From Escherichia coli (lineage in GTDB: Bacteria; Pseudomonadota; Gammaproteobacteria; Enterobacterales; Enterobacteriaceae), in assembly GCF_030384885.1 (NCBI RefSeq), contig NZ_CP128613.1: a stretch of 64,000 nt of DNA; one strand, given 5' to 3'. Below are positions 38,788-48,750 of this stretch, one piece after another (position 1 is the first letter of the stretch; the number at the start of each line of letters is the position of its first letter). The notes beneath the pieces are model-generated. The model had not been told where the DNA came from and did no database searches. It saw only the letters and a program-made list of their open reading frames with translations. Position numbers and translations under genes: made by a program.

Positions 38788-40443
38788 TTAAAACGTTTCC
38801 CAGTTCTCTCCGCTATCTGCCACGGCCATTTTACGCGGCGCAGCTGGCGTCACGGTTTTTACCACAGCCGATGTTTCACGCTGCTGTTGCTGAATCCGGA
38901 ACACTGCCACAGCTTCGGTCAGGCGACTGGCCTGCTCTTCCAGCGCGGCGGCGGCAGCGGCAGATTCTTCCACCAGCGCAGCGTTCTGTTGAGTTACCCG
39001 GTCCATCTCAGCAACCGCTAAGCCAACCTGATCGATACCACGGCTCTGCTCATCAGAAGCCGAAGCAATTTCGCCCATAATGTCCGTCACGCGGGTCACA
39101 GCGCTGACAATCTCTGCCATGGTTTCCCCGGCGCTTTCGACCAGCGTAGAGCCAACATCCACTTTGCCCACCGAGTCTTCAATCAGGCTTTTAATTTCGC
39201 GAGCCGCCTGAGCGCTACGCTGGGCCAGATTACGCACTTCTCCCGCAACCACCGCAAAACCGCGCCCTTGCTCACCCGCACGCGCTGCTTCAACCGCCGC
39301 GTTCAAAGCCAGAATATTGGTCTGGAAGGCAATGCCGTCAATTACGCTGATAATATCGGCGATTTTCTGCGAGCTGGTGGAGATATCGCGCATGGTCTGC
39401 ACCACGTTATCCACCACTTTGCCGCCACGTTGCGCCGTTTCGGAAGCACTTAACGCCAGGTGGCTGGCCTGACGCGCATTTTCGGCGTTCTGCTTCACCG
39501 TTGCGGTCAGTTGCTCCATGCTGGCTGCCGTCTCTTCCAGCGAAGCGGCCTGTTGCTCGGTGCGCGAAGAAAGATCGTTATTGCCGGTGGCGATTTCGCT
39601 GGCACCGCTATAGATAGCATTGGCCCCGTTGCGCACATCACCGACGGTACGCATCAGCTCTCCCTGCATATGGCGCAAACTCTCTGCCAGTTGCCCCATC
39701 TCATTAGAACCATCCACCTCAATCGGTTTCACCAGATCGCCACCTGCAATATGACGAATGCTGTCAATCAGGCGATTCATTGGCGCTACCAACGAGGCTT
39801 TAATACCGAACCAGACGGCGAAGATGACTGCCAGTACGACGATCATCACGCCCACCAGAATCCACATCGCCTGGCTGTAGGAGGCATTGTTATCGCTGAC
39901 AGCGATATCATAGAGCCGATCGTTTTGCTCCATGTAAGCCACATACTGCTTCTCGAAACCGTCCTGATATCCCTGAGTCGGCTGATCAAAGAATTCGTTG
40001 ATTTTGCCTGCACCTAACAGTTGGATCAGTTCCGCCAGCGCATTGTGATAAATATCGTAATTACGTTTGATCTCTGCCGCTGCGGCGGTGCTCTGACGCG
40101 GGTCACGCGGCAATGCTTCGTAATCCGCCCAGTTTTTTTCCGCCTGTTTCAGCGAAATACTGGCACTCTGCATCAGCTCGGCAACGGTTGAACCGCTACC
40201 AATATTGTTCTGATCCATCATGTAGCGGATACCTGCGCGGTTGAGGGTGTTACGCGTCTGCAACAACGCGACCCAGCTGCCATTCAGCGTGGATTGCTGT
40301 TGGCGAATGGTTTGTAAAACAGTGAAATTTTCTTTGTCATTCTTTAAGGCATTAAAGAACAGACCGCCTGATGTCAGTTGTAAAAGGCCAAAAACGGCCA
40401 AAACCAGCAGTAAGCTGGTCACGATCTTGATACGTTTTAACAT
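38788..40443 (-). CDS. tsr: Serine chemoreceptor Tsr (methyl-accepting chemotaxis protein I)
   Basis: 551 aa from [22 protein letters not shown]...; HAMP and methyl-accepting domains; C-terminal NWETF pentapeptide. Confidence 0.95.
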
Positions 40444-40582
40444 GGTTTCTCTTTCCACTAGACAGATACACTGGTTGTCGGCCTGGTGGTGGAAAACTTT
40501 ATGCTGTGGAAAAGCGTCGGCACTGCTTTTGTTGCAGCAAACTTGCGTTTTTTGTGAGGGTCACACTCTATAGCGGCAGTTT

Positions 40583-41488
40583 ATGGTACAAAGTATCAAT
40601 CTTCTTCGAACCAGTGATACTCCTATGGCTTATAGCATCGATATCATCTCCTGCATTACCGAACGATTTATGGCGTTAACAGCCACTGAAAAGCGTATCG
40701 CACAATTTATTCTTGATGATGTCCCCGCCGCGGTGGAACTGCCAATTGCTGAGCTGGCACGGTTAACGCAAACCAGTCAGGCGTCGGTGACGCGTTTTGC
40801 CCGTGCTCTGGGGTGTAAAGATGTCCGCGAGCTGAAAGTCAAACTGGCGCAGTCACTGGCTATCGGGCAGCGGTTTATTCTCGATGTACCGGATCTTGAC
40901 GGTGTTCAGGGGATCTACGAAGCGATTATTAGCGTGCTGGAAACGCATCGTCGTTCGCTGGATATGAATGCCATCAGCCAGGCGGTAAGCTGGTTAAGTC
41001 AGGCGCGGCAAATTCTTGCATTGGGAACTGGCGGCGGTTCCACCATCTGTTCACAGGAGATTCAGTACCGTTTATTCCGTCTGGGGCTACCTGTGGTTAG
41101 TCAGAATGATGCCCTGATGATGAGAATGATGTGCTCGGCAGTGATGCCGCAGGATGTGGTGATTGTGCTGTCGCTGGGCGGTTATACACCGGAAATCATC
41201 GAAAGTGCGGCAATCGCCCGTCAGTATGGCGCGCGTGTTATTGCCATTACGCCAGCACAAACACCGCTGGCGGAACAGGTGGATCTGGTATTGCCGTTAC
41301 TGGTTCAGGAAAGTGATTACATCTTTAAGCCCACCCCTTCCCGCTACGCGGTGTTAGCCATGGTCGATGTACTGGCAACAGAACTGGCAATGGCAAATAA
41401 AGCGCAGGCGAAAGATCGCCTGCGGCGGATAAAACTGGTGTTAGACAGCCACCGTGGGGGCGCTAACCGCCAGCCACTTGGCGATTAG
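40583..41488 (+). CDS. RpiR/MurR-family transcriptional regulator (HTH plus SIS sugar-phosphate-binding domain)
   Basis: N-terminal HTH (EKRIAQFILDD...ELARLTQTSQASVTRFARALG) and C-terminal SIS-like region; true start may be the Met at 40625. Absent between tsr and btsT in my recollection of K-12. Confidence 0.75.
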   Translation: MVQSINLLRTSDTPMAYSIDIISCITERFMALTATEKRIAQFILDDVPAAVELPIAELARLTQTSQASVTRFARALGCKDVRELKVKLAQSLAIGQRFILDVPDLDGVQGIYEAIISVLETHRRSLDMNAISQAVSWLSQARQILALGTGGGSTICSQEIQYRLFRLGLPVVSQNDALMMRMMCSAVMPQDVVIVLSLGGYTPEIIESAAIARQYGARVIAITPAQTPLAEQVDLVLPLLVQESDYIFKPTPSRYAVLAMVDVLATELAMANKAQAKDRLRRIKLVLDSHRGGANRQPLGD

Positions 41489-41497
41489 CATTGTCGG

Positions 41498-42967
41498 TTA
41501 TGCTTCTTCAGGTTTGGTGATCACGACACTCTGGTTTTCACGCTCATTGGTGATAATAGCCAGAGCTTCTTCCCGGCTGACCTGACTTGCTGGCGTTACC
41601 AGCGTCACCACTACGCCAGCGAACAGGCTGCCCAGCACTGACGGAATACACGGGTTACCCCAGTAAGCCAGCCAGTCGGCATTCATCAGCACCACAATGG
41701 ACATCACCATACCGCTCACTAACGCCGCCAGCGCGCCCTGCCAGTTAAAGCGTAGCCAGAAGCGACCGAGAATCGAGCAGATAAACAGCCCGGACATCAG
41801 CATCGAAATCATTTTGGTAATGTAGCTGATGATGTCATTAGAGGTCAGAGCAAAGACCAGCGCCAGGCCAATAACAAAGGTCAACATACAGCGTGAGTAA
41901 GTAATGGCCTTGTCCTCCGGCGGCATTCTGCCGGTAATCATGGTGTAGACGTCGCGCATCATAATCGCCACCGCCGCGATGGCATCGGAGCTGGCGGAAG
42001 ACATGGTGGCTGAAAGCCCGGCAATCAGCACCACCAGCCCAAGAATGGCAGGTAAGAAACTGGTCGCGAACAAGAAGGCGTAGTTGCTGTTTTCCAGATT
42101 TGGGTTCATGGTGAACGCCGCCATGCCGATAATGGCAGGCAGAATCGAGAAGAACAGATACAACACGCCAGTAATAACAAATGAACGCCGTACAGAGGGA
42201 ACGTCTTTTCCCGAGTAAATACGCTGGCGATAAGATGGTGTGGCCAGTACGCCGACACCAATAACCAGCGCCAGCGAAAGCGCAGGCAGCACGCCCATTT
42301 TATCAATCGCAAACAGGCTCATCGCTTTTGGGTCCATCGCCTGTTCAATCGCACTCCAGCCACCAACGTGAACAACGGCAAGAATAGCCATTAATATAAA
42401 GCCAAAGAACAGAATTAGGGCCTGAATAGTATCTGTCCACACTACCGCCGAATAACCGCCGATAATAACGTAAATCGCAAAAGCTAAGGCAATAATTAAT
42501 TTTGCCACCGTAAGATCAATACCTGTTGCCCAGGCAAGATACATACTTCCACCTAATATATGCGCCCCCAGCCAGCCAATAGAGGCAATAAATATCATCA
42601 GGCCGACAATATTTTTAATTAAATGGCTGCCGCCAGTATAATAAGATATTTCTTCACTCATGGTCATAAAACGTAATTTACGTACCGGTGCAAACAGCCA
42701 CGCCACCAGTAATATACCTACGGCCCCACCGACGCCATAAAGCATTCCGGCCCAGCCATTGCTGTAGCCAAAGCCCACTGCGCCCATACTGGAACCCGTG
42801 CCAACCATCGTGGCAACGGTTGACCCCAGCGTCAGAAACAGCGGCAGCGAACGCCCGCCCAGCAGAAAATCTTCTCCGCTTTTCTGATTACGAGAAACAA
42901 ACCAACCAAGCCAAATCATGGCGATGGCATAAATAATAAAGCCGACTAAAAAGATATGACTGTTCAT
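41498..42967 (-). CDS. Sodium:solute symporter family transporter
   Basis: 489-aa polytopic membrane protein with SSS-like N-terminal region (GGRSLPLFLTLGSTVATMVGTGSSMGAVGFGY...). Confidence 0.75.
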   Translation of the reverse strand: MNSHIFLVGFIIYAIAMIWLGWFVSRNQKSGEDFLLGGRSLPLFLTLGSTVATMVGTGSSMGAVGFGYSNGWAGMLYGVGGAVGILLVAWLFAPVRKLRFMTMSEEISYYTGGSHLIKNIVGLMIFIASIGWLGAHILGGSMYLAWATGIDLTVAKLIIALAFAIYVIIGGYSAVVWTDTIQALILFFGFILMAILAVVHVGGWSAIEQAMDPKAMSLFAIDKMGVLPALSLALVIGVGVLATPSYRQRIYSGKDVPSVRRSFVITGVLYLFFSILPAIIGMAAFTMNPNLENSNYAFLFATSFLPAILGLVVLIAGLSATMSSASSDAIAAVAIMMRDVYTMITGRMPPEDKAITYSRCMLTFVIGLALVFALTSNDIISYITKMISMLMSGLFICSILGRFWLRFNWQGALAALVSGMVMSIVVLMNADWLAYWGNPCIPSVLGSLFAGVVVTLVTPASQVSREEALAIITNERENQSVVITKPEEA

Positions 42968-43069
42968 AATTCACATCCTGCCAGTAGAGAGAGAATAATG
43001 TAAGAGTTCCCGGAGTGCTGAATGTATTCAGCACTCAATTGCGGTCTGTTTTTTTAATTCTTAAATTTA

Positions 43070-43465
43070 TTAGCGGGTCGCGTTATAACAGGTCACATCG
43101 ACTTCGACTTTACAATCGACAACCAGATCAGCCACACAACAAATACGTGCAGGCGGATTCTCGCCAAAAAATTCTCTGAATACTTTATTAAATGACTGGA
43201 AATAGCGGGCGTCGGTCAGGATCACTTTCACGTGAACCACATCCGCCAGGCTATAACCGGTTTCAGTCATGATGTCGACACAGTTTTGGATCGCCAGTCG
43301 TGACTGTTCAACGATTCCGCCTTCTATCACTTCACCGTTTTTCATGGGTGTTTGCCCGGAGACGTACAGCCAGCCGCCCGCCTCAACCGCCCTGGCAAAA
43401 GGCAAATGCTGCCCGCCAGTGCCTGTTCCACCTTCCGTACCGTAACGTTTAATGCTCATATTCAC
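43070..43465 (-). CDS. RidA/YjgF-family reactive-intermediate (enamine/imine) deaminase
   Basis: About 130 aa with RidA-like fold signature (...ARICCVADLV...); directly downstream of the aminoacylase gene. Confidence 0.7.
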   Translation of the reverse strand: MNMSIKRYGTEGGTGTGGQHLPFARAVEAGGWLYVSGQTPMKNGEVIEGGIVEQSRLAIQNCVDIMTETGYSLADVVHVKVILTDARYFQSFNKVFREFFGENPPARICCVADLVVDCKVEVDVTCYNATR

Positions 43466-43468
43466 TCC

Positions 43469-44920
43469 TTAATGTGAGGTCTGCCGGCGCAGGAAGCGTC
43501 CCGCACGGCCTGTAATATGTTTATCGCGACCATAGCTCATAACGCCGTTCACCATCACCGCCTCAATGCCATCTGCCGGGCGTTTGGGATCAGAAAAGCT
43601 GGCAACATCACGAATGGTTTGTGGATCGAACAACACCAGGTCCGCAAAATAGCCAACTTTCACCAGTCCACGCTGGGGCAGGCGAAAACGGCTGGCAGAA
43701 AGCCCGGTCATTTTGTGGATAGCCGTGGTCAGTGGGAATAAGCCTTCATCACGGCAATAGTGGCCCAGCACACGAGGGAAGGCGCCCCATAAACGTGGAT
43801 GCGGCATGGGATCATTGGGCAGGCCGTCAGAGCCAATCATACTGACCGGATAACTCAACACTCGGCGGACGTCGCGCTCGTCCATGTTGTAATAGATAGC
43901 CCCGGCAGGCATTAGCAGCTTCGCGGCCTCCAGCATACTCATCTGCCAGTCGATGGCGATTTGCGCCAGTGTTTTTCCGGCCTGCTGCGGATGTGTTTGT
44001 GACCAGGTGATCACAATATCGAATTCGTCGGTGACTTGTTTGAGATCCAGCGTTGATGAACTGGCTGAGTAAGGGTAGACATCGCAGCCAATTTCCTGGT
44101 GTTGACGCATTTGGTCAAAAAAAGCCAACGTTTCTTTTGTCCGCCCCCAGTTTTTCGCCCCGGCGCATTTATGGTGGGAAACCACGACAGGCACTTTGCC
44201 ATGACGCCCAATACGAAACGCCTCATCCAGGGCATCGAGAATCGGTTCAAATTCAGAACGCAGATGGGTGGTATAAACGCCCTTCTCACCGGCTAATTCT
44301 TCCGCCAGCGCCATGACTTCTTCGGTAGTCGCCTGAAATGCTGTGGCATAGGCCAGCCCGGAACTTAACCCCAGCGCCCCCTGACTCAACGCCAGACGTA
44401 AGTCGGCACGCATAGCGGCAATTTCATCCACCGTCGCCGGGCGAAACAGGTCGTCCATATGGTTATTACGCAGCGCCGTATGACCAATCAGCGTGCCAAC
44501 GTTCAGTGACGGCCTGGCTGCTTCCACTGCCTGGGCATAGCTTTCAACGGTAGGATAAATAAAGTGCTCTGCTTCCCCCAGCAGATTCATCGGGTCAGGA
44601 ACTTCGCCTTTCATTTTCGCCGACGCCGCACTGATCCCGCAGTTACCGACAATCACCGTGGTGATCCCCTGGCTGATCTTTGGCAGATATTCCGGGATGC
44701 GAATAACGTTGATATCGTCATGGGTATGAACGTCGATAAACCCTGGTGCCAGCACCCGCCCTTCCCCGTCAATGACCTGCTGCGCCGTAACGTTAAGCGC
44801 AGGGGCAATATCGACAATCCGATCACCTGTTATTGCCACGTCACCGCGAAATTCAGGGCCGCCGCTACCGTCGATAACGGTCACATTTTTGATTAACCAG
44901 TCAACCTGCATGTTCGTCAC
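43469..44920 (-). CDS. N-acyl-D-amino-acid deacylase (D-aminoacylase), amidohydrolase superfamily
   Basis: 483-aa ORF with metal-binding HxH near the N-terminus (GFIDVHTHDD) and D-aminoacylase-like architecture. Confidence 0.7.
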   Translation of the reverse strand: MTNMQVDWLIKNVTVIDGSGGPEFRGDVAITGDRIVDIAPALNVTAQQVIDGEGRVLAPGFIDVHTHDDINVIRIPEYLPKISQGITTVIVGNCGISAASAKMKGEVPDPMNLLGEAEHFIYPTVESYAQAVEAARPSLNVGTLIGHTALRNNHMDDLFRPATVDEIAAMRADLRLALSQGALGLSSGLAYATAFQATTEEVMALAEELAGEKGVYTTHLRSEFEPILDALDEAFRIGRHGKVPVVVSHHKCAGAKNWGRTKETLAFFDQMRQHQEIGCDVYPYSASSSTLDLKQVTDEFDIVITWSQTHPQQAGKTLAQIAIDWQMSMLEAAKLLMPAGAIYYNMDERDVRRVLSYPVSMIGSDGLPNDPMPHPRLWGAFPRVLGHYCRDEGLFPLTTAIHKMTGLSASRFRLPQRGLVKVGYFADLVLFDPQTIRDVASFSDPKRPADGIEAVMVNGVMSYGRDKHITGRAGRFLRRQTSH

Positions 44921-45111
44921 TCCATTTCTGCAATGGTGACAAGTTAACCATTTACAAGGACGAAAAACAGTGGAAAACTACGCAAAACCCAGATGATTTT
45001 CTGATACTTTTATTCATAAATCATAAGATAAATAAACTAAATATTTATATTTCATTTAGTTACAAATGATACTCATATCCGATACGGTGAAAAACTTAAA
45101 AGGTGAATGTT

Positions 45112-46332
45112 ATGAAATACCACTCTGAACCTCTGGTTCCCCATAAATCTGCCCTGATGCAAATGCCCGCAAATCTCCTTGCCGAAGATGTCTGTTTACC
45201 TGCCGCGATCATTAAAAAGCAGGCCCTGGAGAACAACATTACGTGGATGCAGCGTTATGCTGACGCGCGCGGCGTTTCACTGGCACCGCACGGTAAAACG
45301 ACCATGACGCCGTGGATTTTTCAGGCGCAGCAGGCCGCAGGTGCCTGGGCAATAGGTGTCGGTAGCGCATGGCAGGCTGGTGCGGCAATGGCGAGCGGTA
45401 TTCAGCGAGTGCTGATGGTTAACCAGTTGGTCGGCAAGGCGAATATGCAGTTGATTGCCCAGTTGCAACGGCATTACCCGACGGTCGATTTTATCTGCTG
45501 TATCGACAGCATTGAGAACGCCCGCGCTTTGTCTGCCTTTTTTGCCAGTCAGCAACAGACACTGAACGTGATGATTGAGTTGGGTGTTCCCGGCGGACGC
45601 TGTGGTTGCCGCTCAACGGATGCCGCACTGGCACTGGCTAAACAGGCGGCCCAATTACCAGGGCTACGTCTGCGCGGGCTTGAGTTATATGAAGGTGTTT
45701 TACACGGTGACGATCCACAACCGCAGGTAGAAGCACTGCTGCGGGATGCCGCACAACTGGCCTGTGATATGGCAAGTCTGGTTGATGGCGAGTTTATTCT
45801 CACCGGAGCAGGCACTGTCTGGTATGACGTGGTGTGCAATATCTGGCTGGCGGCAGAAAAGCCTGATAACTGCCGCATTGTTATTCGCCCTGGCTGCTAC
45901 ATCACTCACGACACCGGGATCTACGACGCGGCACAACAACAGTTGCTTGCCCGCGATCCTGTGGCCTGCGATCTGGCAGGCGATCTCACATCTGCGCTGG
46001 AACTGGTCGCCATGGTGCAATCGGTGCCGGAAGCTGATCGTGCGGTGGTAAATTTTGGTAAGCGTGATTGCGCCTTCGACGCCGGACTGCCGCAACCAGT
46101 CGCCCACTATCGCAACGGCAAATCACTGGCATTTGATCCACAGGCGATTCGCAGTACAGGCATTATGGATCAGCACTGCATGTTGCAACTGTCAGCTAAT
46201 AGCGACGTGCAAGTGGGGGATATTCTGGTGTTTGGCACATCGCATCCGTGCCTGACCTTCGACAAATGGAAAACGTTGTTATTGGCTGATGACGACTACA
46301 ACGTACTGGCGGAATTAGACACTCTCTTCTAA
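45112..46332 (+). CDS. PLP-dependent alanine-racemase-fold enzyme, DSD1 / D-threonine-aldolase / D-serine-dehydratase-like
   Basis: About 406 aa; PHGKT motif (putative PLP-lysine) typical of the DSD1/D-threonine aldolase family; RBS-like AAAGGTG upstream. Confidence 0.65.
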   Translation: MKYHSEPLVPHKSALMQMPANLLAEDVCLPAAIIKKQALENNITWMQRYADARGVSLAPHGKTTMTPWIFQAQQAAGAWAIGVGSAWQAGAAMASGIQRVLMVNQLVGKANMQLIAQLQRHYPTVDFICCIDSIENARALSAFFASQQQTLNVMIELGVPGGRCGCRSTDAALALAKQAAQLPGLRLRGLELYEGVLHGDDPQPQVEALLRDAAQLACDMASLVDGEFILTGAGTVWYDVVCNIWLAAEKPDNCRIVIRPGCYITHDTGIYDAAQQQLLARDPVACDLAGDLTSALELVAMVQSVPEADRAVVNFGKRDCAFDAGLPQPVAHYRNGKSLAFDPQAIRSTGIMDQHCMLQLSANSDVQVGDILVFGTSHPCLTFDKWKTLLLADDDYNVLAELDTLF

Positions 46333-46337
46333 GAATA

Positions 46338-46369
46338 CCCCTTCGGTTAATTATCGAAGGGGCATTTTT
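46338..46369 (+). terminator. Rho-independent terminator after the DSD1-like gene
   Basis: CCCCTTCG...CGAAGGGG hairpin followed by a T-tract. Confidence 0.7.
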
Positions 46370-46415
46370 ATTGTGATCTCAATCACATATCCACCCGACG
46401 AATAATTCTTGCCCA

Positions 46416-46443
46416 ACCGCTTACCGCCATTCCTGACCGCTTA
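46416..46443. promoter_or_regulatory. BtsR (YehT) response-regulator binding site upstream of btsT
   Basis: Direct repeat ACCGCTTA – 12 nt – ACCGCTTA, matching the described ACC(G/T)CTTA direct-repeat motif, about 140 bp upstream of the btsT start. Confidence 0.55.
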
Positions 46444-46584
46444 CGTCCCTAAAATAACCACTCAGTTATTTACCTTACTTTACGCGCGCGTAACTCTGGC
46501 AACATCACTGCAGGATAGCGGTCAATTTACCTCCTCAAACGCAACGCAAACCTAGAACGGCTTCGGCCAACTATTAATCAATAC

Positions 46585-48750
46585 ATGCCAGGTTTTACTA
46601 TGGATACTAAAAAGATATTCAAGCACATACCCTGGGTGATTCTCGGAATCATCGGTGCATTCTGCCTCGCGGTAGTTGCATTACGTCGGGGGGAGCACGT
46701 CAGTGCCCTGTGGATCGTGGTCGCCTCTGTGTCGGTGTATCTGGTGGCTTATCGCTACTACAGTCTGTACATCGCCCAGAAAGTGATGAAACTCGACCCC
46801 ACGCGCGCGACGCCTGCGGTTATTAACAATGACGGTCTGAACTATGTTCCGACCAACCGTTACGTGTTGTTTGGTCACCACTTCGCCGCTATCGCCGGTG
46901 CGGGTCCGCTGGTTGGTCCGGTTCTCGCCGCGCAGATGGGCTACCTGCCTGGCACTCTGTGGCTGCTGGCGGGGGTAGTGCTGGCCGGTGCGGTACAGGA
47001 CTTTATGGTGCTGTTTATCTCCTCTCGCCGTAACGGTGCATCTCTCGGTGAGATGATCAAAGAAGAGATGGGGCCAGTGCCGGGGACTATCGCGCTGTTT
47101 GGCTGTTTCTTAATCATGATCATCATCCTCGCCGTTCTGGCGCTGATTGTGGTTAAAGCCCTGGCCGAAAGTCCGTGGGGTGTCTTCACCGTTTGCTCAA
47201 CCGTACCAATTGCGCTGTTTATGGGTATCTACATGCGCTTTATCCGTCCGGGACGTGTAGGTGAAGTCTCTGTTATTGGTATCGTGCTGCTGGTTGCCTC
47301 TATCTACTTCGGTGGCGTAATTGCTCACGATCCGTACTGGGGTCCGGCACTGACCTTTAAAGACACCACCATTACCTTCGCGCTGATTGGCTATGCGTTT
47401 GTTTCCGCACTGCTGCCGGTGTGGCTGATCCTCGCACCGCGCGACTATCTGGCAACCTTCCTGAAAATCGGCGTTATCGTCGGCCTGGCGCTGGGTATCG
47501 TGGTGTTGAACCCGGAACTGAAAATGCCTGCGATGACGCAGTACATTGACGGTACTGGCCCGCTGTGGAAAGGCGCTCTGTTCCCGTTCCTGTTCATCAC
47601 CATCGCCTGTGGTGCGGTATCTGGCTTCCACGCGCTGATCTCTTCCGGTACGACGCCGAAACTGCTGGCTAACGAAACCGACGCGCGTTTCATTGGCTAC
47701 GGCGCAATGCTGATGGAGTCCTTCGTGGCGATTATGGCGCTGGTTGCTGCATCCATCATCGAACCGGGTCTTTACTTCGCGATGAATACCCCGCCTGCGG
47801 GCCTTGGCATCACCATGCCTAACCTGCATGAAATGGGTGGCGAGAACGCGCCGATCATCATGGCGCAGCTGAAAGACGTTACCGCACACGCGGCAGCGAC
47901 TGTCAGCTCCTGGGGCTTCGTGATTTCGCCAGAGCAGATCCTGCAAACCGCGAAAGACATTGGTGAGCCTTCTGTCCTGAACCGTGCAGGTGGTGCGCCG
48001 ACGCTGGCGGTAGGTATCGCTCACGTGTTCCACAAAGTGCTGCCGATGGCTGACATGGGCTTCTGGTATCACTTCGGTATTCTGTTCGAAGCCCTGTTCA
48101 TCCTGACCGCGCTGGATGCGGGTACCCGTTCTGGCCGCTTTATGCTGCAAGACCTGCTGGGTAACTTCATCCCGTTCCTGAAAAAAACCGATTCTCTGGT
48201 TGCCGGTATCATCGGTACTGCGGGCTGTGTGGGTCTGTGGGGCTACCTGCTGTATCAGGGCGTGGTCGATCCGCTGGGCGGCGTTAAGAGCCTGTGGCCG
48301 CTGTTCGGTATCTCCAACCAGATGCTGGCAGCCGTAGCGCTGGTACTGGGCACCGTTGTGCTGATTAAGATGAAGCGCACCCAATACATCTGGGTGACTG
48401 TTGTTCCGGCTGTATGGCTGCTTATCTGCACCACCTGGGCGCTGGGCCTGAAACTGTTCAGCACCAACCCGCAGATGGAAGGCTTCTTCTATATGGCAAG
48501 CCAGTACAAAGAGAAGATTGCTAACGGTACTGACCTGACGGCACAGCAGATTGCCAACATGAACCACATCGTTGTGAACAACTACACCAACGCGGGCCTG
48601 AGTATTCTGTTCCTGATTGTGGTGTACAGCATCATCTTCTACGGTTTCAAAACCTGGTTGAAGGTGCGTAACAGCGACAAACGTACTGACAAAGAAACAC
48701 CGTACGTTCCAATCCCGGAAGGCGGCGTGAAGATCTCTTCGCACCACTAA
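46585..48750 (+). CDS. btsT: CstA-family pyruvate/H+ symporter BtsT (YjiY)
   Basis: 721-aa polytopic CstA-family ORF; synteny with yjiX and yjiA. Confidence 0.92.
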   Translation: MPGFTMDTKKIFKHIPWVILGIIGAFCLAVVALRRGEHVSALWIVVASVSVYLVAYRYYSLYIAQKVMKLDPTRATPAVINNDGLNYVPTNRYVLFGHHFAAIAGAGPLVGPVLAAQMGYLPGTLWLLAGVVLAGAVQDFMVLFISSRRNGASLGEMIKEEMGPVPGTIALFGCFLIMIIILAVLALIVVKALAESPWGVFTVCSTVPIALFMGIYMRFIRPGRVGEVSVIGIVLLVASIYFGGVIAHDPYWGPALTFKDTTITFALIGYAFVSALLPVWLILAPRDYLATFLKIGVIVGLALGIVVLNPELKMPAMTQYIDGTGPLWKGALFPFLFITIACGAVSGFHALISSGTTPKLLANETDARFIGYGAMLMESFVAIMALVAASIIEPGLYFAMNTPPAGLGITMPNLHEMGGENAPIIMAQLKDVTAHAAATVSSWGFVISPEQILQTAKDIGEPSVLNRAGGAPTLAVGIAHVFHKVLPMADMGFWYHFGILFEALFILTALDAGTRSGRFMLQDLLGNFIPFLKKTDSLVAGIIGTAGCVGLWGYLLYQGVVDPLGGVKSLWPLFGISNQMLAAVALVLGTVVLIKMKRTQYIWVTVVPAVWLLICTTWALGLKLFSTNPQMEGFFYMASQYKEKIANGTDLTAQQIANMNHIVVNNYTNAGLSILFLIVVYSIIFYGFKTWLKVRNSDKRTDKETPYVPIPEGGVKISSHH

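Follow-up and report, generated by a model that had tools for sequence, protein, structure and literature searches.

A five-gene ong-type cluster between tsr and btsT of Escherichia coli: a probable module for the catabolism of an oxidised N-acetyl amino sugar acid

2-Acetamido-2-deoxy-D-gluconate (N-acetyl-D-glucosaminate; GlcNAc1A) is the hallmark product of chitin oxidised by lytic polysaccharide monooxygenases (LPMOs), and its catabolism is opened by the deacetylase OngB (PMC9537276; PMC12017989). The ong cluster of Pseudoalteromonas prydzensis ACAM 620 encodes OngR, an RpiR repressor; OngIT, an inner-membrane GlcNAc1A importer of the sodium:solute symporter (SSS) family; OngB; OngC, a deaminase of fold-type III that uses pyridoxal 5'-phosphate (PLP) and converts D-glucosaminate into 2-keto-3-deoxy-D-gluconate (KDG) and ammonia; the RidA protein OngD; the GH20 hexosaminidase OngA; KdgK; and a TonB receptor (PMC9537276). 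Growth of this bacterium on GlcNAc1A is lost in ongB, ongC, ongD, ongIT and kdgK knockouts (PMC9537276). Here we describe a cluster of five genes that lies between tsr and btsT in a 64,000-nucleotide stretch of Escherichia coli DNA (assembly GCF_030384885.1, contig NZ_CP128613.1; hereafter the window) and that resembles the cytoplasmic and inner-membrane part of the ong system.

A reading made from the letters of the window, without database searches (hereafter the sequence-only reading), had described this DNA as an accessory island, a candidate module for the catabolism of N-acyl-D-amino acids or D-amino acids, with a substrate not deducible from sequence. Its observations were confirmed and its interpretation is partly supported. 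In our view the cluster is probably a module of the ong type for the catabolism of an oxidised N-acetyl amino sugar acid, i.e. an N-acetyl-2-amino-2-deoxy-D-hexonate. This assignment is based on the homology of all five genes, the gene order B-D-IT, the substrate-binding residues of the deacetylase and purifying selection on the genes. A substrate class can, after all, be derived from the homology to OngR, OngIT, OngD, OngB and OngC of the GlcNAc1A pathway; by homology, the substrate itself would be GlcNAc1A.

Five genes in common with described ong clusters

Inspection of the open reading frames (ORFs) of the window showed ~5.9 kb between tsr and btsT to be filled by five intact ORFs (Table 1). 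The sequence-only reading had attributed these to an RpiR/SIS regulator, an SSS transporter, a RidA protein, a D-aminoacylase and a DSD1-like PLP enzyme, and the NCBIfam and Pfam matches agree with these families: the precomputed matches of the orthologues are HTH_6 + SIS, SSF, Ribonuc_L-PSP, Amidohydro_3 and Ala_racemase_N + D-ser_dehydrat, respectively. The orientations that it gave were also found, the aminoacylase and RidA genes being co-directional and the PLP gene divergent from them. The regulator gene is present as well, but not with the start at 40583 that had been proposed: the ATG at 40583 lies within a conserved palindrome (see below), whereas the start chosen by PGAP, at 40625, is an ATG common to all orthologues and is most likely the correct one. 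In strain Z142-3 the region is 100% identical and its RefSeq annotation lists the same five products, under generic names such as 'D-aminoacylase' and 'amino acid deaminase'.

A scan for the cluster, with one genome per species, returned 80 loci. The E. coli proteins were compared with those of three Vibrio ong loci, with identities of 50–54% for R, 43–45% for C, 61% for B, 82–84% for D and 67–69% for IT. The gene order B-D-IT is common to the E. coli and Vibrio clusters; the position of the regulator gene differs, since in E. coli it is the outermost gene, runs towards the symporter gene and is separated from it by 9 bp. The five cytoplasmic and inner-membrane functions are shared with the ong clusters of P. 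prydzensis and Vibrio, but the E. coli cluster lacks the GH20 enzyme OngA, the TonB-dependent receptor, KdgK and an LPMO; the V. europaeus cluster, for its part, continues with a PfkB-type KdgK, Eda and a GH20 enzyme.

We infer the transport step, the enzyme activities, the regulatory logic and the C4 epimer of the E. coli system from these homologues. The symporter (OngIT homologue) would import the sugar acid and the metal-dependent amidohydrolase (OngB homologue) would remove its acetyl group. The fold-type III PLP enzyme (OngC homologue) would then carry out an alpha,beta-elimination of the C3 hydroxyl, with release of ammonia and formation of a 2-keto-3-deoxy-hexonate, and the enamine/imine intermediate would be hydrolysed faster with the help of RidA (OngD homologue). 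Repression of the divergent operons until the substrate is present would fall to the RpiR/SIS protein (OngR homologue), and the keto-deoxy acid would be passed to core enzymes encoded outside the cluster, KdgK/Eda if it has the gluco configuration, DgoK/DgoA if it has the galacto configuration. This is the reaction logic that had been read from the sequence (uptake, deacylation, PLP-dependent elimination or deamination, action of RidA on the imine), and its general chemistry was right: in formal terms GlcNAc1A counts as an N-acyl-D-amino acid, though it is a sugar acid. The part that is not favoured is the ordinary D-amino acid as substrate. The deaminated product would be a 2-keto-3-deoxy-hexonate rather than pyruvate or 2-oxobutyrate. 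The Salmonella dga pathway for D-glucosaminate likewise breaks down an amino sugar acid, the phosphate of a keto-deoxy sugar acid being formed and cleaved by an aldolase, but it depends on a phosphotransferase system, proceeds through a phosphorylated intermediate, uses an unrelated ammonia-lyase and is not known to include a deacetylase, an SSS transporter or RidA.

The ong assignment is not new for E. coli, since E. coli strains appear in Supplementary Data 3 of Jiang et al. 2022 (PMC9537276), where CVM N36401PS and E308, for example, are scored ong '+' and lpmo '-'. The locus tags of these entries follow the order ongC-ongB-ongD-ongIT-ongR, without kdgK or ongA (PMC9537276). The E. coli cluster was thus previously catalogued, yet neither discussed nor tested in that paper, and the result of our genome scan is largely ordinary because the pathway was published in 2022 with E. 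coli already in the supplement.

A reduced arrangement was seen in many genomes of the Pseudomonas fluorescens and syringae groups (loci L014–L081, e.g. L028, 7642–11437), in which the genes are limited to those for a transporter of the GntP family, a regulator of the RpiR type and an OngB-like deacetylase, the latter ~62–63% identical to the E. coli protein and with Gly at position 348. No OngC or RidA (OngD) gene is present within 10 kb of these loci; this suggests that deacetylation in Pseudomonas feeds a D-glucosaminate pathway encoded elsewhere. As OngC and OngD are lacking nearby, the P. fluorescens-group loci were set aside as a guide to the substrate.

The deacetylase pocket and the candidate substrates

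The amidohydrolase is 84.2% identical, over 480 residues, to KleDacyl of Klebsiella pneumoniae (PDB 9g5m) and 53.6% identical to PpOngB (PDB 9kb1), in an alignment that is ungapped over 474 residues (E 3.5e-167). When the three proteins are aligned, the metal and catalytic residues His65, His67, Cys94, His219, His249 and Asp365 are invariant. The residues to be compared in the pocket, 15 that bind GlcNAc1A or shape the pocket, were taken from the PpOngB structure paper (Journal of Biological Chemistry (JBC) 2025). Of the 15, 14 are identical to PpOngB, including Ser292, Gln298, Glu226, Ser290, Ser291, Ala193, Ala256, the carboxylate and acetamido anchors and the catalytic Asp; the sole differing residue is 348, Asn here and Gly in PpOngB. 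Ser292 is replaced by Thr in true D-aminoacylases, and the S292T variant of PpOngB retains 1.3% of its efficiency (JBC 2025 structure paper); the counterpart of Gln298 is Leu in AfDam and Arg in a D-Glu deacylase (Bb3285 Arg295). True D-aminoacylases have the fold, the Cys/His/His + HxH metal site, the catalytic Asp and the carboxylate/acetamido anchor residues in common with the E. coli protein, but they match it more weakly (E 1e-136 and 1e-115) and their side-chain pocket is absent from it: the equivalents of Thr292, Leu/Arg298, Phe191, Met254 and Met346 are Ser, Gln, Ala, Ala and Asn, i.e. Ser292, Gln298 and small or polar residues at 193, 256 and 348, as in an OngB-type pocket. The D-aminoacylase announced for this ORF, then taken as 483 aa long, was borne out as regards fold and metal site but not as regards the side-chain pocket.

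Among PDB structures, the PLP enzyme is matched best by 3gwq, labelled 'D-serine deaminase' (E 4.6e-107, 45% identity). The motifs HGK (Lys62) and SHPC (His378-x-Cys380) are both kept in 3gwq; from what is known of the family, we take Lys62 to be the PLP-binding residue and His378/Cys380 to be the C-terminal metal site. The Ala_racemase_N + D-ser_dehydrat content places the 406-aa protein within the DSD1/alanine-racemase fold, as had been proposed. The DSD1-type family (D-serine dehydratase, D-threonine aldolase, D-threo-3-hydroxyaspartate dehydratase) has these domains, the PLP lysine and the His-x-Cys motif in common with the E. coli enzyme but is distant from it (E 1e-14 to 1e-28), and by sequence the enzyme falls into a separate OngC/'cryptic DSD' (3gwq) clade, the characterised member of which acts on D-glucosaminate. 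As to the remaining proteins, the PPAR motif of RidA is the source of its conserved Arg105, and the regulator, 77–91% identical to its enterobacterial orthologues, is of the SIS-domain type that senses sugar derivatives.

Several points weigh against an ong-type module with GlcNAc1A as its substrate. The activities of the E. coli proteins, the transport and the role in growth are assigned by homology, and the comparison with OngC-type proteins was made through the Vibrio orthologues (43–45%). The cluster is without a kinase, an aldolase, a GH20 enzyme or an outer-membrane receptor of its own; neither a kinase gene of this kind nor an OngA homologue, nor any of the other missing functions, is found elsewhere in the 64-kb window, and E. 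coli is without LPMO in the published table (PMC9537276). Three further observations belong here, each of which bears on another substrate: KleDacyl hydrolyses some N-acetyl-D-amino acids, residue 348 differs from PpOngB, and most of the enterobacterial relatives examined carry DgoK/DgoA rather than KdgK/Eda.

The first of these would fit a module for ordinary N-acyl-D-amino acids (e.g. N-acetyl-D-Ser, D-Thr or D-Met), in which the PLP enzyme dehydrates or cleaves the released D-amino acid, in line with the RefSeq names and with the label of 3gwq; OngC, moreover, also deaminates D-Ser and D-Thr in vitro (PMC9537276). KleDacyl acts enantiospecifically on N-acetyl-D-Met, N-acetyl-D-Phe, N-acetyl-D,L-Trp and N-acetyl-D,L-ABA, but its efficiencies are very low (Km 19–32 mM, kcat/Km 1.5–2.8 min-1 mM-1; for N-acetyl-D-Met, Km 32 mM and kcat/Km 2.8 min-1 mM-1, ~47 M-1 s-1), and its side-chain pocket holds glycerol via Glu220, Lys248 and Asn342 (PDB 9G5M/9GV8; PMC12149444). 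Because of these low efficiencies and the pocket-bound glycerol, KleDacyl fits the description of a polyol-binding site with promiscuous acylase activity. It has the Ser-Ser-Ser/Gln/Asn pocket in common with the E. coli enzyme and is described only as a biocatalyst on N-acetyl-D-amino acids, its genomic context and sugar acids being outside that work; by sequence it is very likely orthologous and derived from the same type of cluster, the homologue in a Klebsiella-like locus (L084) being 85% identical. PpOngB and two homologues have zero detectable activity on ten N-acetyl-D-amino acids, N-acetyl-D-Ser included, and the hydrophobic or basic pocket residues of D-aminoacylases are those replaced in the E. 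coli protein. A sugar-derivative sensor as regulator also argues against amino acids, and the keto-deoxy-hexonate kinase and aldolase of the sister clusters would be pointless for amino-acid products. We consider ordinary N-acyl-D-amino acids an improbable substrate.

The sister clusters raise a question of configuration. In 11 of the 16 enterobacterial sister loci (Leclercia, isolate RIT691, Cedecea sulfonylureivorans, three Rahnella species, Enterobacter sp. R1, Buttiauxella, Citrobacter freundii, a Klebsiella-like locus and Serratia odorifera), the operon also includes genes for a kinase and an aldolase, placed between those for the symporter and the regulator, which implies that the product of the pathway is a keto-deoxy sugar acid. 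The kinase belongs to the DGOK family (PF05035, 302 bits) and the aldolase is of the DgoA type (NF006600, 302 bits where 207 is the cutoff, and no more than 116 bits with the eda model). Identity to E. coli DgoK is 50–55% and to DgoA 66–70%, compared with 28–36% to Vibrio Eda. The chitin-associated clusters of Vibrio and Pseudoalteromonas have a PfkB-type KdgK instead (a 318-aa 'sugar kinase' in P. prydzensis), with Eda encoded within the cluster in Vibrio and at another place in the genome in P. prydzensis. The PLP enzyme does not separate the two flavours, its identity being ~40–47% to the KdgK and DgoK flavours alike. Supplementary Data 4 of PMC9537276 calls the gene after ongIT 'kdgK' in Klebsiella and S. 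odorifera; in the Klebsiella-like and S. odorifera loci that we fetched (L084 and L086), this position is occupied by a Pfam DGOK gene followed by a DgoA-type aldolase gene and not by a PfkB-type kdgK, which conflicts with the published label.

Since the PLP-dependent elimination leaves C4 untouched, a dedicated 2-keto-3-deoxy-D-galactonate kinase and the matching phosphogalactonate (KDPGal) aldolase imply a galacto-configured substrate. The same enzymology would then act on the C4 epimer, N-acetyl-D-galactosaminate (GalNAc1A), and lead through D-galactosaminate and 2-keto-3-deoxy-D-galactonate to DgoK/DgoA (the DeLey-Doudoroff branch), a course that we regard as possible although we do not favour it. 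The deacetylase offers a correlate: at position 348, Asn is present in each of the 16 enterobacterial sister loci and in 8 Burkholderiales/Achromobacter loci, and Pseudomonas, Andreprevotia, Vibrio and PpOngB, the KdgK-bearing loci among them, have Gly or Cys; in KleDacyl the equivalent Asn contacts the bound polyol beside Glu220, the counterpart of the C4-OH ligand of PpOngB. The pattern at 348 may, however, follow phylogeny and not function, and all the other sugar-contacting residues of PpOngB are conserved. The E. coli cluster has neither dgoK nor dgoA, the seven-gene form is found in none of the E. coli genomes, and LPMO-bearing Serratia species have the DgoK/DgoA flavour too. The core dgo operon of E. 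coli has D-galactonate as its inducer, which also speaks against the epimer. Our literature search on the catabolism of galactosaminate or GalNAc1A, its natural source or a link to a glucosaminate lyase returned nothing relevant. In Paraburkholderia, dgoK/dgoA are adjacent but behind a separate IclR-type regulator and may belong to an unrelated operon; this adjacency was judged ambiguous. Core dgoK/dgoA are present in at least 5021 of 5426 E. coli genomes, and the species presumably has core kdgK and eda as well, so that either keto-deoxy product could be metabolised. The wider proposal that the enterobacterial ong-like clusters form an undescribed N-acetyl-D-galactosaminate pathway via KDPGal, not one for GlcNAc1A from chitin, with Asn348 as the specificity switch, seems to us rather unlikely. 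If the galacto configuration were true, the substrate in the gut could be oxidised N-acetylgalactosamine from mucin or diet.

Distribution and evolutionary status of the locus

The genes were expected from the sequence-only reading to be missing from the K-12 junction, and this is the case: in K-12-type genomes tsr and btsT are adjacent, with a 377-bp spacer and no cluster. A blastn alignment to this empty site places the extra DNA at ~40504–46432; the gap variant of O157 is homologous down to 46371, which brings the right edge to ~46370. When presence and absence were surveyed, the interior of the region was found in 194 of 5426 complete E. coli genomes (3.6%), always on the chromosome and at 97.8–100% identity. 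The carriers include SMS-3-5, enterotoxigenic E. coli (ETEC) O6:H16 and many poultry isolates. About 20 of 60 sampled positive genomes come from avian sources (chicken and other), including APEC O2-211 and the avian pathogenic E. coli (APEC) O78:H4; this share hints at an enrichment by lineage or host.

The term 'island' was not borne out in the sense of a mobile element. No flanking direct repeats, insertion sequence (IS) or integrase gene were found at the region, its GC content is like that of the flanks with no compositional anomaly, and none of the signs of a mobile island, be it an integrase or IS, direct repeats at the flanks, a tRNA target or a deviant composition, was found. In Citrobacter freundii the same slot is filled, in the order btsT, C-B-D-IT-dgoK-dgoA-R, tsr, lgoT, and in Leclercia the cluster is found between hpa genes and tsr. 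A mobile island was rejected on these grounds. The five proteins of E. coli and Citrobacter are 81–94% identical, and the flanking BtsT, Tsr and LgoT 86–95%. Comparison with the E. coli alleles of SMS-3-5 and of an ETEC O6:H16 strain gave pN/pS values of 0.060 and 0.070, respectively; the five genes are under purifying selection. Taken together, the syntenic slot in Citrobacter, the flank-like identities, the low pN/pS and the lack of signs of mobility make the cluster look like a locus of old enterobacterial standing that E. coli has retained in a patchy manner and that is still selected, neither a recent mobile acquisition nor a relic.

A relic would be a non-functional remnant of the seven-gene cluster, decaying after the loss of dgoK/dgoA and disappearing from E. 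coli. The low frequency of the cluster would be in keeping with this, as would the lack of a kinase and an aldolase gene, both present in most sister loci, and also one strain in which the cluster is interrupted by IS3 and another with a partial copy. On the other hand, all five ORFs are intact in 193 genomes and evolve at the low pN/pS given above, five-gene forms are present in Franconibacter and Shimwellia too, and the dgoK/dgoA functions are supplied by the core genome of most strains. We regard decay as very improbable.

The gap between tsr and btsT (40444–46599) is variable among E. coli and takes at least five forms. K-12 types have nothing in it; an 11-gene hpa (4-hydroxyphenylacetate) cluster occupies it in ~2070 of 5426 genomes, a single 543-bp hypothetical gene in O157:H7 and the ong-like cluster in this window; and in ETEC O6:H16 M9682-C1 the ong-like cluster is accompanied by a hydroxyproline-catabolism cluster (4-hydroxyproline epimerase, FAD oxidoreductases, DHDPS-family protein, aldehyde dehydrogenase, APC permease and Ldh-family oxidoreductase). 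The tsr-proximal flank (40301–40503) is 92% and the btsT-proximal flank (46433–46698) 99% identical to a K-12-type genome, and this inequality suggests that the two flanks have different recombination histories. Just past yjiA, downstream of btsT-yjiX-yjiA, are mrr and the type I restriction-modification gene hsdR (locus L001, 15617–18201), a segment known as the 'immigration control region' and variable too.

Regulatory DNA and significance

The coordinates of the genes and of the other features are collected in Table 1.

Table 1. Genes, candidate regulatory elements and boundaries at the tsr–btsT gap (positions in the window)
Feature	Position	Strand	Basis or remark
tsr	38788-40443	-	flank of cluster
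DNA absent from K-12-type tsr-btsT spacers	~40504-46370		left edge from K-12-type site, right edge from O157 variant
Palindrome TGGTAC-AAA-GTATCA, candidate operator	40584-40598		~25 nt upstream of regulator start
OngR-like MurR/RpiR regulator (HTH_6 + SIS), 287 aa	40625-41488	+	NCBIfam HexR/RpiR matches; PGAP start
OngIT-like sodium:solute symporter (SSS), 489 aa	41498-42967	-	TIGR00813
Perfect 11-bp-arm palindrome/hairpin GAGTGCTGAAT-AC-ATTCAGCACTC	43013-43036		RidA-symporter spacer
OngD-like RidA family protein, 129 aa	43070-43459 (alternative start 43465)	-	TIGR00004 Rid family
OngB-like putative N-acetyl-hexosaminate deacetylase, D-aminoacylase fold, 480 aa	43469-44911 (alternative start 44920)	-	PDB matches
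Invariant box TGATACTTTTATTCA (also given as TGAATAAAAGTATCA)	45002-45016	plus-strand coordinates	divergent B/C promoter region
OngC-like putative fold-type III PLP deaminase/dehydratase, 406 aa	45112-46332 (alternative start 45103)	+	Pfam Ala_racemase_N + D-ser_dehydrat
Intrinsic-terminator-like hairpin + T-run, directly 3' of PLP gene	46338-46362	+	terminator scan: 10-pair stem, 6 GC pairs
CRP-like site TGTGATCTCAATCACA	46372-46387		right of insert; equivalent TGTGATATGAATCACA in K-12-type spacer
btsT	46600-48750	+	flank of cluster

The inverted repeat with 8-bp arms that the sequence-only reading had pointed out in the B/C spacer, AACTAAAT-N11-ATTTAGTT, is present exactly where it was said to be (arms at 45035–45042 and 45054–45061). 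As a regulatory element it was rejected: in the 12 orthologous spacers compared, conservation does not extend to its right arm, and an equivalent repeat was obtained in 215 of 2000 shuffles (11%) of this spacer, the GC content of which is 29%. It is probably due to chance. The spacer does contain a box that is invariant in 13 of 13 aligned enterobacterial spacers, save one T/C column, and that has the half-site GTATCA in common with the palindrome upstream of the regulator gene; two more conserved blocks are found nearer the start of B.

The palindrome upstream of the regulator gene has the consensus TGGTAC-AAA-GTA(C/T)CA. When up to 2 mismatches are allowed, it is present in 15 of the 16 enterobacterial sister loci (the exception being S. 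odorifera), as well as in each of the three other E. coli copies compared, always upstream of the RpiR gene, and no other occurrence was found in the 1.58 Mb of locus DNA searched. We propose it as a candidate autoregulatory operator; the regulator would bind these conserved DNA elements. The palindrome between the RidA and symporter genes is kept in Citrobacter, the Klebsiella-like locus and S. odorifera, with compensatory T/A to C/G changes in the first two and a G·U wobble in the third. No T-run follows this hairpin on the transcribed strand, and the element could serve to stabilise the RNA or, as an operator, to control a promoter of the symporter gene internal to the operon. An Rfam scan of the region gave zero matches.

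On the flanks, the CRP-like site to the right of the insert is presumably part of the control region of btsT. A tsr promoter that we take to be of the sigma-28-like type, and direct repeats upstream of btsT to which we likewise ascribe a function from general knowledge, are retained.

If the cluster is an ong-type module, as we think probable, a group of E. coli accessory genes with generic names is given a testable substrate class, namely oxidised N-acetyl amino sugars. The comparison also suggests that KleDacyl, known as an enzyme for biocatalysis, may really be a sugar-acid deacetylase. The presence of DgoK/DgoA in the enterobacterial sister clusters raises a new and specific question, that of the gluco or galacto epimer. 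For E. coli itself, the carrier strains may use a nutrient that is closed to K-12.

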